Source: an uncultured Alphaproteobacteria bacterium
GTDB lineage: Bacteria; Pseudomonadota; Alphaproteobacteria; RF32; CAG-239
Direction: 5' to 3'
Length of the DNA stretch: 64,000 nt
Assembly (NCBI GenBank): GCA_944392225.1
Contig: CALXWB010000004.1
Span: 206 to 64,205 of the forward strand
Shown here: piece by piece, positions 52,126-55,713 of the stretch
Numbering within the stretch: position 1 is the stretch's first letter
Layout: each line of letters opens with the position of its first letter
Notes under the pieces: generated by a model
Told to the model about the DNA's origin: nothing
The model's database searches: none
The model's input: only the letters and a program-made list of their open reading frames with translations
Position numbers and translations under genes: made by a program

Positions 52126-55100
52126 CTAAGCAAAACCGCCAATGACGGAAGCTTTTTCTTTTCTTCGGTTGCGGACAAATCTTTTTCTGACGGTTTCAAG
52201 TTCTTCATCGCTGAAAGCGCTGTTGATCTTGTCGCCGAAAGCGCGATAAGAAAAATCCCCTTCAACATCAACACCAAACTTTGTTTTTTGAGCATAATAA
52301 GAGGATAAGCCGTAAGCTTCATATCGTCTGCCGCGAACAACTTTTCTTTCCCGGTTGATCATACCATCGGTAGCCAGATCCAAAGCATTTCCTTTGTCAT
52401 CTCTGCTGTTATATTCCACCAAGGCGCGATTATCGCCGTTTTGAGGCAGTGTCATCCTCAAGCTGACGGAATTATTTTTAGCATCAACAGAAGCCATTTC
52501 AATCACTTCTTTGCCGTTTTCGTCTTTATACATTCTGATATTTTGCGGATTAACGTTGGGCAAAGAAACATTTTGTTTAAAGCTTTGTTCGGCATATTGT
52601 TTCATGGCGGCAGCCAGGATCATCTCGCGAGAAAAGGCAGAGCCTTGGAGAGCCAAATCCAAAGAGGTTGTGTTAAGAGAACCGTCTTTATTGCGAATGG
52701 CTTTCAGCCCGTTAGTTTCAATGGAAACGGCGCTGTCCGTAACCACGCCGTCTTTGGTGGTTTCAACCTGTTTCAAATATCCGTCCGAGCGGGTTGTTTT
52801 GACCACACCGTTGCCATAATCTTTAGAGGTTTCAAGCATTTTTGTGCCGTTGTTCATAATATTAACGGTTTTGGTAACATCTCTTCCCCTAAAGCGAGAT
52901 TTTGACTTGATTTGATAAGACTGTCCGATGACATTTCCGTCTTTATCCAAAATATCAGTAGCCACGCCCATACCGTTTTTAACATCTTTTTGAATGGATT
53001 TGATCTGTCTTTCGCGGCGGGCATCGCCAATTTTTTCTTTTGCGGTGTCGGCAAAAAGTTTTCCGGCACTTTTTGTGCCTGACCAAGCTTTTTTGCCCAA
53101 GTCTTTTGCTCCTTTGGCAGCCATACCGCCGATTTGTCTGCCAATTCCGCTTTCTGAAAGGGCGGGACTGAATTGGTCAGCAAATAAGTTAATTTCTTGC
53201 AGCACGGTCCAAGTCAGCAACAAAATAAAAATCACTTTAAGCAAAGTGACCCCGCCCCAAACCAAAACCGTAATGATGGATTCTTGGAAGTTTTCATCGG
53301 TCAGATCATTCAAGCCGCTGCCCGTGATAGTCTCTTCAATGGCGGTTGTTAAGATGAGGATGACAATGCTCAGGAACACAAAATTGAAAATGGCGTTCAT
53401 AAAAGCATTCCAAACATGTTTGACATAAGAATTTGTCATTTTGAAAGGATAAGCGCCAATGGCTGCCGGCAACAAAGCACAAGCAATTGTCAGCTGGAAG
53501 ATTGAGTCAATCATAAGGAAAGGAAAGATAACAATAACCACCCCGGCTCCGGCAACAATAAGCAAGCCGGAAAAAAGATAAGGCAGGGAAGGAAAGATGA
53601 AGTAACTTCCTTTAACATACAGGCCGATACACATGGAAGCAGCGCCGATGGATAGTGTTTGGACCAGTTTTCCTTGAATGGCTTCCAGAGTGCATAAAAT
53701 GCTCTGTCCCATAGAAGCAGGTAAACCGCCGTCTTGCATAACGGCATATTGCGTATTGCAAGTTCCGTCAGAAACGGCCAATTGAGCCAGTTTAAACCCG
53801 GTATTAAATATGGGCTCCATCAGCATGGCAAAGAAGGTATTAGAGTCTGCTTGCAAGAAAAGGACCACAATCAACACAACCAAAGACTTGCCTAAAAGTG
53901 TTTTGATGAGAGTGGGCGCATCTTTTGTGGAAAAAGAAGAAACAAAGCTCAAAATTTGTGATCCCATCCACAAAGCCCAAGCCACCAGTACCACCACCAT
54001 AACCGGGAGAGAGAGCTTGTTAAAGGTCAGTTTGGCAATTGTGCTGGCCGTGTTAAATATAACCTGGAACAGCGGGCAAAGCATGCAGCCGCCGTAAGAG
54101 GCTTTATACTGGCTTGGCGAGCAGTTTTTCTCGTTTTCCGAGCCAGAGCTGGAGCCGCCGACGGCGCCGCTGGCAGAACATTTGAATGAGGCGGATCCGC
54201 TGCCGGTGCAGGCTTTTCTGCCGGTCACCTCTTCAACAATTTGTTCATAAGATTTTCTTTCACCTTCGGGTTTTTGTTGTTCAGCTTCCCAAGCCTTACG
54301 AATTTTCAAGGATTCGAGAGCTTCAGATCCTTCTCTGGCGTTTCTTTTTTGCACGGATTCCCTAATGCTGGCCGAAGAGTTGGAATAAAAATAGTCTCTT
54401 CTTTTATACATGGCCTCCAGCAATTCTTCTTCTGTCATTTTGGCCGGATCGCCGATATTCTTTTTAATGGAGTTCATCAAATTTTTAACACCGCCGGGGG
54501 AACCAAGAGCAACGGCTGCGGAGAACAGGGCCATTTGCAGTTCGGGAGACATGGCATTAAAATCAATTCCATAGCTTGATTTGATGGCGTTTGCGGCCAC
54601 ATCATAAAAGTTGGCTTTCATATAGTTTTCTTGAGAAGCCTCAAAAGCACTTTTGTTTGAGGTTGAGCAAATAGCTTTCCATTTATTTGCAAAATCGGTA
54701 GCCGGAGCCGTGCAGGCACGAGCATTCATTTGTTCAACCGTTCCGCCGCCGAGCTGAGCCCAGATTTTAGAGTTTGTTTTTTGCAAATAAGCCAGATAGT
54801 TTTTCATGCTACCCGGGGCACAAGCCAATTGGCTTGAACCGTAACTGCACCCGCCGATATCTCCGGGCACGCAATTGTTAAAGGCGCAAACATCGCCGGC
54901 AGCCTCATATTTATGGTGCAATTCGGAAATATTATCTGCCGGATACATTTTTGCACAGCCTGAGACAGAACACCTATCTTCCAAAGGCACATCGGCAGAG
55001 CCGCCGGAATCTGCCGATCCGTTTGGAGGAACGGCCGCATCGGCATAATTTTGCGGCACCTTGCACATAACGCCTTGCATATCAGCGGCAAAAGGATCTT

Positions 55101-55713
55101 TTTTGTTGACGGTTCCCGTGGTGCGCACTTCATAGTGCAAGTGCGGTCCGGTTGATGATCCCGTATTTCCGACAAAGCCGATAACGGTTCCTTTTTTAAC
55201 CCGCTGCCCAACCTGTAACCTTTTACCGTTATAAGTGGCAAAACAGTTCATATGAGCATACAGCGTTGTATAACCATTGTCATGGTCAATTTGGATTCGG
55301 TTGCCATACCCCTTGGTATCAGTAGAGTCGCTGCGCGAAATTTTTCCATCGGCAGCGGCATAAATAGGAGCACCGAGGGGCGCTGCAAAGTCCACAGCCC
55401 CATGTCCCTTTGAGCCGGAATATCGCGGTGGAGAAATTGGGTCATTTCTGGGACCGAAGGTGCTGGAAACGCGGTTAATGGGGGAGGCCGGAGCCGCATC
55501 CAAACATCCTTCTCTGGTTTGGCAAGAAGCATCGGAACAGTTGGCATCATGGGTTAACTGAGGTAAATCATCGGCAGGGCATTCTTTTCCCAAGCGGGAA
55601 GGATCACCGGCATAAGAGGGGAGCATATATAAAAAACACAGCAAAACCATGCCGCAAAACATTGCTGTTTTGCCAGATCTGATTTTGAATATGTTTTTTA
55701 GATGTTTCAACAT
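52126..55713 (-). CDS. VirB6/TrbL-like polytopic protein fused N-terminally to an M23 (LytM) peptidase and a lysozyme-like domain, with a long C-terminal extension (1195 aa)
   Basis: Signal peptide. M23 motifs 'GHGAVDFAAPLGAPIYAAADG', 'IQIDHDNGYTTLYAHM', 'GFVGNTGSSTGPHLHYEV' (aa ~80-205). 'LHHKYEAAGD....GDIGGCSYGSSQL....MKNYLAYL....ALFSAAVALGSPGG' (aa ~260-450). 'CMLCPLF' followed by ~7 TM helices shared with the three upstream paralogues. 'GIGRQIGGMAAKGAKDLGKKA', then a ~330-aa tail. Confidence 0.75.
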   Translation of the reverse strand: MLKHLKNIFKIRSGKTAMFCGMVLLCFLYMLPSYAGDPSRLGKECPADDLPQLTHDANCSDASCQTREGCLDAAPASPINRVSSTFGPRNDPISPPRYSGSKGHGAVDFAAPLGAPIYAAADGKISRSDSTDTKGYGNRIQIDHDNGYTTLYAHMNCFATYNGKRLQVGQRVKKGTVIGFVGNTGSSTGPHLHYEVRTTGTVNKKDPFAADMQGVMCKVPQNYADAAVPPNGSADSGGSADVPLEDRCSVSGCAKMYPADNISELHHKYEAAGDVCAFNNCVPGDIGGCSYGSSQLACAPGSMKNYLAYLQKTNSKIWAQLGGGTVEQMNARACTAPATDFANKWKAICSTSNKSAFEASQENYMKANFYDVAANAIKSSYGIDFNAMSPELQMALFSAAVALGSPGGVKNLMNSIKKNIGDPAKMTEEELLEAMYKRRDYFYSNSSASIRESVQKRNAREGSEALESLKIRKAWEAEQQKPEGERKSYEQIVEEVTGRKACTGSGSASFKCSASGAVGGSSSGSENEKNCSPSQYKASYGGCMLCPLFQVIFNTASTIAKLTFNKLSLPVMVVVLVAWALWMGSQILSFVSSFSTKDAPTLIKTLLGKSLVVLIVVLFLQADSNTFFAMLMEPIFNTGFKLAQLAVSDGTCNTQYAVMQDGGLPASMGQSILCTLEAIQGKLVQTLSIGAASMCIGLYVKGSYFIFPSLPYLFSGLLIVAGAGVVIVIFPFLMIDSIFQLTIACALLPAAIGAYPFKMTNSYVKHVWNAFMNAIFNFVFLSIVILILTTAIEETITGSGLNDLTDENFQESIITVLVWGGVTLLKVIFILLLTWTVLQEINLFADQFSPALSESGIGRQIGGMAAKGAKDLGKKAWSGTKSAGKLFADTAKEKIGDARRERQIKSIQKDVKNGMGVATDILDKDGNVIGQSYQIKSKSRFRGRDVTKTVNIMNNGTKMLETSKDYGNGVVKTTRSDGYLKQVETTKDGVVTDSAVSIETNGLKAIRNKDGSLNTTSLDLALQGSAFSREMILAAAMKQYAEQSFKQNVSLPNVNPQNIRMYKDENGKEVIEMASVDAKNNSVSLRMTLPQNGDNRALVEYNSRDDKGNALDLATDGMINRERKVVRGRRYEAYGLSSYYAQKTKFGVDVEGDFSYRAFGDKINSAFSDEELETVRKRFVRNRRKEKASVIGGFA

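Follow-up and report, generated by a model that had tools for sequence, protein, structure and literature searches.

We analysed a stretch of 64,000 nucleotides (hereafter the window) from an uncultured alphaproteobacterium (contig CALXWB010000004.1), which carries the genes of a type IV secretion system (T4SS) with four VirB6 paralogues in tandem. The last of these, termed B6d, carries two peptidoglycan-hydrolase domains in front of its VirB6 core. An earlier note, made from the nucleotide letters alone, had described this protein as a VirB6-like channel protein fused to an M23 endopeptidase and a lysozyme-like domain. The gene and its modules are listed below, with residue positions given as amino acids (aa).

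52126..55713, minus strand: hydrolase-VirB6 fusion B6d, 1195 aa, last of the four tandem VirB6 paralogues
55609..55713, minus strand: signal sequence (aa 1-35), with five Lys/Arg in the n-region (aa 1-15) and a hydrophobic stretch (aa 16-36), ending in SYA followed by GD
55084..55536, minus strand: M23/LytM metallopeptidase module (aa 60-210; Pfam core aa 103-201)
54331..54921, minus strand: VgrG3-C-like/GH46-like glycosidase domain (aa 265-461), with the acidic pair E270 and D285
54109..54318, minus strand: linker (aa 466-535), a helical segment followed by a low-confidence Gly/Ser-rich tether of ~30 residues
53164..54108, minus strand: VirB6/TrbL-type core (aa 536-850), with a CxxCPLF motif, two N-proximal transmembrane (TM) helices, a Cys-containing periplasmic helical loop (aa ~624-705) and three more hydrophobic helices
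52126..53163, minus strand: C-terminal tail (from aa ~846-851 to 1195), basic and free of Cys, with a long basic helix and two β-rich modules

Domain architecture of B6d

The reading frame of B6d is unbroken over 1195 aa on the minus strand, and an AGGAG Shine-Dalgarno sequence lies 7 nucleotides 5' of its ATG. A promoter and terminator scan near the 3' end gave a signal no higher than the shuffled expectation. From the N- to the C-terminus, the protein consists of the signal sequence, a Peptidase_M23 domain, a VgrG3-C/GH46-like glycosidase domain, a flexible linker, the VirB6 core and a conserved tail of ~350 aa. Both the signal peptide and the long tail past the core had been proposed before, and both are borne out. 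An exact 1195-aa copy of B6d is present on 4 contigs (sources NCBI, Logan and ENA), the members of its cluster are likewise 1195 aa long, and the same unbroken M23-glycosidase-VirB6 layout is seen in ~20 more clusters at 48-83% identity to B6d. The earlier note had allowed that separate hydrolase and VirB6 genes might have been merged by a sequencing or assembly error. The identical continuous frame in independent assemblies from three sources, together with the ~20 diverged clusters of full architecture, excludes such an artefact; moreover, there are clean modular variants, and the orthologue P0249 has M23, VgrG3_C and TrbL all over the Pfam cutoffs in one protein. With no break between the hydrolase part and the TM part, a merger of two genes has virtually no probability.

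The M23 domain, matched by Pfam PF01551 at aa 103-201, scores 101.5 bits (E 3e-29), far above the cutoff of 28.7. It possesses the residues H104-G-A-V-D108, H154 and H191-L-H193, thus keeping all the Zn ligands and the catalytic His; the assignment as an M23/LytM domain with HxxxD and HxH motifs holds. H104, D108, H154, H191 and H193 are invariant in all 29 M23-bearing members of the family described below. Search against NCBIfam gave the DD-endopeptidases ShyC, MepM and ShyA as top matches, followed by weaker matches to the activators ActS, NlpD and EnvC, and 39 solved M23 chains in the PDB matched the domain. By its similarity to ShyC, MepM and ShyA, the B6d M23 domain is probably a DD-endopeptidase, predicted to cut peptide cross-links.

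The second domain matches Pfam PF21277 (T6SS_VgrG3-like_C) at aa 265-461 with an E of 2.1e-23 and 83.7 bits (cutoff 27), covering profile positions 4-182 of 183. A phmmer search of B6d aa 252-480 against the PDB retrieved only the C-terminal domain of Vibrio cholerae VgrG3 (VgrG3C; 4NOO and 4NSO), and in the alignment with 4NOO the segment KYE(270)AAGD...GD(285)IGGCSYGSSQL of B6d stands opposite KYESAG...GDYGGASYGCYQM. The AlphaFold2 (AF2) model of aa 235-501 has a predicted local distance difference test score (pLDDT) of 90.4 and a predicted TM-score of 0.86. Structural similarity search of the glycosidase model using Foldseek revealed 4NSO_A/4NOO_A as the best matches (E 2e-5, TM-score 0.76), followed by GH46 chitosanases (E 1e-4 to 4e-3). 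The profile and the glycosidase fold thus agree with the VgrG-3-like lysozyme domain proposed earlier. E270 and D285 are 15 residues apart, the same spacing as in the acidic pair of VgrG3C, and both are invariant in 35/35 carriers of the domain; they probably correspond to the catalytic E827/D842 of VgrG3. Judged from sequence and model, the domain is a putative glycosidase that would cut glycan strands. A homologue search with the glycosidase domain alone gave 1 irrelevant match among 169 candidates and did not recover the domain's own family, the candidates apparently being length-restricted.

The membrane part of B6d is, on the evidence of its paralogues, its orthologues and its predicted fold, a VirB6 protein. 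It bears CxxCPLF at aa 543 and VSSF at aa 591. Although Pfam TrbL (PF04610) gave no match to B6d itself at E≤1, B6d aa 519-798 align with the first paralogue, B6a (60240-62252), at 28% identity (BLASTP, E 2e-37), and its core aligns with B6b (58845-60221; E 1e-11) and B6c (55779-58841; E 4e-8). The orthologues P0249, P0234 and P0212 exceed the 25.9-bit TrbL cutoff. The AF2 model of aa 501-1195, built from a 44-sequence alignment, has a mean pLDDT of 77, and its best PDB matches by Foldseek are the TrwI/VirB6 chains of R388 (8RT9_F, 8RTD_L and 7O3V_F; probability 1.0, target TM-score 0.58-0.63). A core profile built from all four window paralogues found 0 matches among PDB sequences, which fits the known divergence of VirB6; among 1.84 billion cluster representatives it matched 1802 at E≤1e-3, and the core is therefore part of a large family. 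B6c and B6d were assigned to VirB6 by BLAST and by this profile, B6d also by fold; since B6c is one of the four source sequences of the profile, its strong match is not independent. The four VirB6/TrbL paralogues of the earlier note can all be assigned as such, two of them by a direct Pfam TrbL match, and its VirB6-type TM core stands on the paralogue alignment, the orthologue TrbL matches, the VirB6 fold and the CxxCPLF/VSSF motifs. Its label of a channel protein is loose, as VirB6 of R388 is a periplasmic pentameric platform and not an open channel (PMC12857230).

Residues 37-558 of B6d are soluble and contain 19 Cys, whereas the hydrophobic core extends over aa 560-845 and includes a 72-residue loop (aa 633-704) that holds three conserved Cys. 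Classical VirB6 topology comprises a periplasmic N-terminus, five TM segments and a cytoplasmic C-terminus. The charge and Cys distribution of B6d is compatible with this arrangement. In the R388 structure, only the two N-proximal VirB6 helices reside in the membrane, and the remainder forms the periplasmic pentamer (PMC12857230). From the signal sequence, the Cys residues in aa 37-558 and the loop, and the Cys-free tail, both hydrolase domains are predicted to face the periplasm under either model, as the earlier note had supposed.

Between the hydrolases and the core, aa 501-528 of the linker have a pLDDT <50 in the AF2 model. The mean identity to B6d across the family is 40% for the M23-glycosidase linker and 59% for the glycosidase-core linker. 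The low pLDDT and the lower conservation of the linkers are consistent with a flexible tether of ~30-35 residues, which, stretched fully, would span on the order of 10 nm, presumably enough to reach the sacculus. The tail is modelled at a pLDDT of 85-94, and Foldseek gave no significant match to it in the PDB; a hidden Markov model of the tail marks the orthologue group of B6d that carries the hydrolases.

Exchange of hydrolase modules among orthologous loci

Homologue search over 5.8 billion proteins revealed 44 clusters, all unnamed, with the same core and tail as B6d. They fall into three modular classes, namely those with M23 and glycosidase at the N-terminus (class A, n=20), with the glycosidase only (class B, n=15) and with M23 only (class C, n=9). 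An N-terminal hydrophobic segment like that of B6d is present in 44/44 clusters. The mean identity to B6d is 61% for M23, 64% for the glycosidase, 62% for the core and 41% for the tail; as the values for the two hydrolases are close to that of the core, the enzymatic domains are as constrained as the structural core, in line with purifying selection. More divergent members with the same modules were found among 50%-identity representatives, and one M23-only orthologue is present on 236 contigs.

Four tail-bearing orthologues, P0212, P0234, P0236 and P0257, have no recognisable hydrolase. A profile of such hydrolase-less, tail-bearing orthologues, followed by locus retrieval, led to P0305 and to the loci L012-L014. 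In P0305 (L012 8995-11895, 966 aa), residues 97-198 match the Pfam SLT (lytic transglycosylase) domain with 79.6 bits (cutoff 21.3) and an E of 1.7e-22. This SLT domain occupies the same N-terminal site as the B6d hydrolases in place of M23 and glycosidase, and is followed by core and tail. The motifs VES, GLGQF and AYNTG, which belong to family-1 lytic transglycosylases, are intact in it; P0305 is in effect a VirB1-VirB6 fusion.

In the third paralogue of L012, TM2 (aa 244-265) and TM3 (aa 664 on) are separated by an inserted M23 domain (HAGID...HLH). The insertion interrupts the match to the core profile at positions 126/130, the counterpart of the B6d periplasmic loop. Such loop-inserted M23 domains with intact HxxxD and HxH motifs are found in paralogue 3 of three loci, L012 (6068-8986), L013 (5920-8508) and L014 (5786-9004), and represent an independent way to attach the same enzyme to VirB6. 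The fourth paralogues of L013 and L014, P0236 and P0257, are hydrolase-free, and it is their third paralogues that carry the loop M23. The N-terminal extension of the P0236 type was also considered as a cryptic hydrolase and rejected: it is coiled-coil-like, and its comparison by hhalign with the profiles of M23, glycosidase and SLT gave probabilities of <1%.

The following module map combines the window with 15 syntenic loci (L001-L015).

Class A, M23 and glycosidase at the N-terminus of paralogue 4: window, L001, L008, L010, L011
Class B, glycosidase only at the N-terminus of paralogue 4: L002-L006
Class C, M23 only at the N-terminus of paralogue 4: L007, L009, L015
Class D, M23 in the paralogue-3 loop and SLT at the N-terminus of paralogue 4: L012
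Class E, M23 in the paralogue-3 loop only: L013, L014

In each of the 16 loci, one or more peptidoglycan-hydrolase modules are carried by VirB6 paralogues, always at a periplasm-facing site. Among 10 VirB6-like proteins with long N-terminal extensions outside the tail-bearing group, no hydrolase domain was found in any, indicating that the fusion is specific to this type of locus.

Genomic context and role of the fused hydrolases

The four-paralogue array extends from 62252 to 52126 on the minus strand with gaps of 18, 3 and 65 bp. It is preceded on its 5' side, in the same orientation, by a 62-aa open reading frame (ORF) and two conserved unknowns, and the rest of the T4SS is encoded on the opposite strand. 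The features around B6d are as follows.

50583-51005, minus strand: small secreted Cys-containing ORF (140 aa), 3' of the XRE regulator and two genes downstream of B6d
51020..51991, minus strand: XRE-family regulator with dual helix-turn-helix (Pfam HTH_3 x2), directly 3' of B6d
55779..58841, minus strand: B6c, VirB6 paralogue 3 (1020 aa), matching B6d by BLASTP (E 4e-8), with a charged-repeat C-terminus
58845..60221, minus strand: B6b, VirB6 paralogue 2 (458 aa), Pfam TrbL 29.4 bits (cutoff 25.9)
60240..62252, minus strand: B6a, VirB6 paralogue 1 (670 aa), Pfam TrbL 33.3 bits, closest paralogue of the B6d core
62239..62427, minus strand: 62-aa ORF with two hydrophobic stretches (probably two TM helices), overlapping the B6a start
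18949..45361, plus strand: rest of the T4SS, comprising VirB2 x2, VirB4, coiled-coil unknowns, VirB8 x2, VirB9-SPOR, a Bflower protein, VirB10 and VirB11 (Pfam)

At the position of the 62-aa ORF, a gene of 63-68 aa is called in all 10 related loci that have gene calls, and it may be a VirB3- or VirB7-like component. The C-termini of two paralogues are of low complexity, with (EERRR)n in B6c (55779-56100, minus strand) and (GGDKGGAG)n in B6a (60240-60500, minus strand). The XRE regulator is 84-91% identical across loci whose VirB6 paralogues are only 38-70% identical, and is far more constrained than the neighbouring genes. In the plus-strand part, the VirB9/CagX homologue (34257-35894) ends in a SPOR peptidoglycan-binding domain, which suggests that this T4SS engages the sacculus directly. 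The following 1145-aa protein (35891-39328) and the 1682-aa VirB10 (39335-44383) each contain approximately nine Bflower_2 repeats (five-fold β-flower, lectin-like), and the giant N-terminal region of VirB10 is kept in the related loci. A complete type IVb pilus cluster (5307-18830) adjoins the T4SS to its left, with two bundlin/PilS-like pilins, two T2SSE ATPases, T2SSF, PilO, a secretin and TcpQ. The window's left edge (1182-4088, minus strand) is occupied by a row of genes for a Ser/Thr protein kinase, a PP2C phosphatase and a protein with a VWA domain.

By Pfam, no SLT/VirB1, VirB5 or VirD4 was recognised among the window ORFs of at least 150 aa, no type VI secretion system (T6SS) gene was found among the window ORFs, and the window contains no separate hydrolase gene. 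The lack of VirB1 at the locus therefore agrees with the earlier note within the window. The relatives of B6d come from metagenome-assembled genomes of uncultured Alphaproteobacteria, such as UMGS1426. A tblastn search of 72,556 plasmids gave no core relative and no fusion, and a glycosidase match on one Paenibacillus replicon only; with no core relative among these plasmids, the system is not a known plasmid conjugation system. It is a chromosomal P-type T4SS of uncultured human-gut Alphaproteobacteria.

Taken together, B6d is probably a structural VirB6 subunit with two predicted-active peptidoglycan hydrolases that perform a VirB1-like wall opening for the T4SS. Sec would export B6d, and the VirB6 core would anchor it in the inner membrane at the machine axis. 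The flexible tether of ~30-35 residues would let both enzymes reach the sacculus right above the assembling machine, where they would open a local gap for the stalk, the pilus and the outer-membrane complex. Both domains would be active, each on its predicted bond and on the wall of the producing cell itself, and would be needed in T4SS assembly. VirB6 of R388 forms a pentamer at the machine axis (PMC12857230), and enzymes tethered there would cut only where stalk, pilus and outer-membrane complex pass. Wall cutting would thereby be built into the machine and spatially confined, a job that soluble VirB1 does in classical Gram-negative T4SSs. In a patescibacterial T4SS, the peptidase and lysozyme homologues encoded beside virB4 are essential (PMC12102498); the pairing of an endopeptidase with a glycan-cutting enzyme in B6d would mirror both that pair and the PrgK-type proteins.

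Five lines of comparative evidence argue that the wall-remodelling function is built into VirB6, as the earlier note had proposed alongside a toxin: the complementarity between paralogues 3 and 4, the canonical VirB1-type SLT at the same N-terminal position in P0305, the loop-inserted M23 that a single cut could not free as a toxin, the slow evolution of the enzymatic domains, and the lack of a conserved adjacent immunity gene. On these grounds, the remodelling function is favoured over a toxin.

Several points weigh against a tethered wall-cutting function. To our knowledge, VgrG3_C (PF21277) has been characterised solely as an antibacterial T6SS toxin, and the swapping of enzymatic heads also resembles that of polymorphic toxins. 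As no VirD4 is recognisable in the window, a periplasmic-substrate route, as in the Ptl system, is conceivable. Furthermore, VirB1 is often dispensable in model systems (PMC12857230), so the strong conservation of the hydrolases in the VirB6 fusions is not automatically explained. In Rickettsia, the VirB1-like RvhB1 is encoded away from the rvh T4SS genes (PMC2653234), and the absence of VirB1 accordingly applies to the window only.

Some of these points would be expected if the M23 and VgrG3C-like domains were toxins against competing gut bacteria, either freed by proteolysis into the periplasm and exported via the T4SS, or shown at its distal end; the machine would then be a T4SS that kills bacteria. 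PF21277 is defined by the T6SS effector VgrG3, the fold matches 4NOO/4NSO are effector-immunity complexes, enzymatic heads differ among orthologues in the fashion of polymorphic toxins, and VirD4 is unrecognised in the window. T4SSs that kill do exist (PMC6536674), and basal Rickettsiales rvh systems have been proposed to kill congeners (PMC11077975). Moreover, the small secreted Cys-containing ORF at 50583-51005 lies near the fusion in the window, L001 and L008 only, all of them loci with M23 and glycosidase. It resembles DUF1311/LprI by eye, yet has no Pfam match even at E≤5; a role as an inhibitor or immunity protein within this lineage is conceivable, as is no relation to the fusion at all. 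As a general immunity protein the ORF was rejected, being absent from the glycosidase-only and M23-only loci. The 11 loci outside class A (L002-L006; L007, L009, L015; L012; L013, L014) have no adjacent immunity gene; their intergenic gaps are too short to conceal a further gene, and the small ORF is confined to the close relatives of the window. The domains are covalently tied to a polytopic structural subunit, the loop M23 of L012-L014 is flanked by TM helices so that its release needs two cuts, P0305 has SLT, the housekeeping activity of VirB1, at the same position, and the hydrolase domains show none of the hypervariability expected in an arms race, their evolution being as slow as that of the core. 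We therefore consider an antibacterial toxin unlikely. Slightly less likely again is a variant in which the VirB6 paralogues themselves carry lytic warheads (M23, GH46-like and SLT) against the wall of a prey or recipient, through proteolytic release or through an outward push on the stalk of a machine without VirB5. If true, this would amount to contact-dependent killing or entry in which a structural subunit doubles as effector.

The domains might instead bind peptidoglycan without cutting it, fixing the VirB6 platform to the wall or activating other hydrolases in the manner of EnvC and NlpD. Inactive VirB1 homologues serve as adhesins in Gram-positive systems (PMC12857230), the SPOR domain on VirB9 of this system suggests wall engagement, and the weaker NCBIfam matches include the activators ActS, NlpD and EnvC. 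However, the best NCBIfam matches are active DD-endopeptidases, the five M23 residues (29/29) and the glycosidase acidic pair (35/35) are invariant, and the SLT variant retains the catalytic Glu motif. Degenerate LytM activators typically lose their metal-binding or catalytic residues. A non-catalytic wall anchor is rated lower still, and appears improbable.

Comparison with known systems

Full-text literature searches gave no VirB6-hydrolase fusion, and nothing relevant on T4SSs of gut RF32-type Alphaproteobacteria. A diderm T4SS with wall-cutting enzymes in a core subunit instead of a soluble VirB1 is apparently an undescribed case: the T4SS-associated wall hydrolase is of a known kind, and what is new is its fusion to the VirB6 platform in several interchangeable forms. 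According to a 2025 review, it is not yet known what role the additional domains of extended VirB6 proteins play (PMC12857230). The hydrolase-VirB6 family provides a first concrete, testable functional assignment for such extensions, and bears on how trans-envelope machines pass the sacculus. The five natural arrangements already form a set of swaps from which one could learn which bond specificities are sufficient for T4SS assembly. As the carriers recur in gut metagenome assemblies, the system may also matter for the dealings of commensals with their hosts or neighbours.

A close functional counterpart is VirB1 of Agrobacterium tumefaciens and Brucella, and TraL of pKM101, which likewise are encoded with T4SS genes and are predicted to open the sacculus locally; P0305 also shares their SLT domain. 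Whereas VirB1 is small, soluble and periplasmic and has one SLT domain (PMC12857230), B6d lacks SLT (no PF01464) and has M23 and GH46-like domains on a structural subunit. By its domain content, B6d is predicted to work like VirB1 without being a member of the VirB1 family.

CwlT of ICEBs1, which combines a muramidase with a peptidase, belongs to the same Gram-positive class as PrgK and TraG. PrgK of pCF10 (LytM+SLT+CHAP) and TraG of pIP501 (SLT+CHAP) resemble B6d in being membrane-tethered, multi-domain proteins that join a peptidase to a glycan-cleaving enzyme, and Gram-positive VirB1-like hydrolases in general have a membrane anchor and are built from combinations of LytM, SLT, muramidase and CHAP modules (PMC12857230). 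They differ from B6d in having a single N-terminal TM anchor, in being separate from VirB6 and in acting outside a monoderm membrane, whereas B6d has a diderm host and VirB6 as its anchor.

The RvhB6a-e proteins of Rickettsiales and the VirB6 proteins of Ehrlichia and Anaplasma are also tandem paralogues of 450-1200 aa with big hydrophilic extensions, from alphaproteobacterial chromosomal T4SSs in which VirB8 is duplicated and VirB5 is not recognisable. The RvhB6 extensions have no reported enzymatic domain, and their role is 'not yet known' (PMC12857230), whereas those of B6d are identifiable hydrolases. The rvh T4SS is characterised by multi-copy VirB6, duplicated VirB4, VirB8 and VirB9, and the lack of VirB5 (PMC11077975). 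The window shows four VirB6, two VirB8 and no recognised VirB5, but only one VirB4 and one VirB9.

With V. cholerae VgrG3C (4NOO, 4NSO), the B6d glycosidase shares the Pfam family, the fold, the KYE...GD.GG.SYG motif and a Glu/Asp pair 15 residues apart. Whereas VgrG3C forms the C-terminal warhead on a T6SS spike and has TsiV3 as its immunity protein, the B6d domain is N-terminal, predicted to be Sec-exported and located on a T4SS subunit. Similarly, X-Tfe-type effectors of Xanthomonas bear an XVIPCD secretion domain at the C-terminus, depend on VirD4 and have an adjacent immunity gene, whereas the window has neither a recognised VirD4 nor a conserved immunity gene.

Wall-cutting activity on a machine component is also found in FlgJ of β/γ-proteobacterial flagella, a rod-cap scaffold fused to a muramidase, and in PtlE of the Bordetella Ptl T4SS, a VirB8 homologue with peptidoglycanase activity. 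Compared to B6d, these two belong to another machine or are another subunit, have a single enzymatic activity and share no homology with VirB6.

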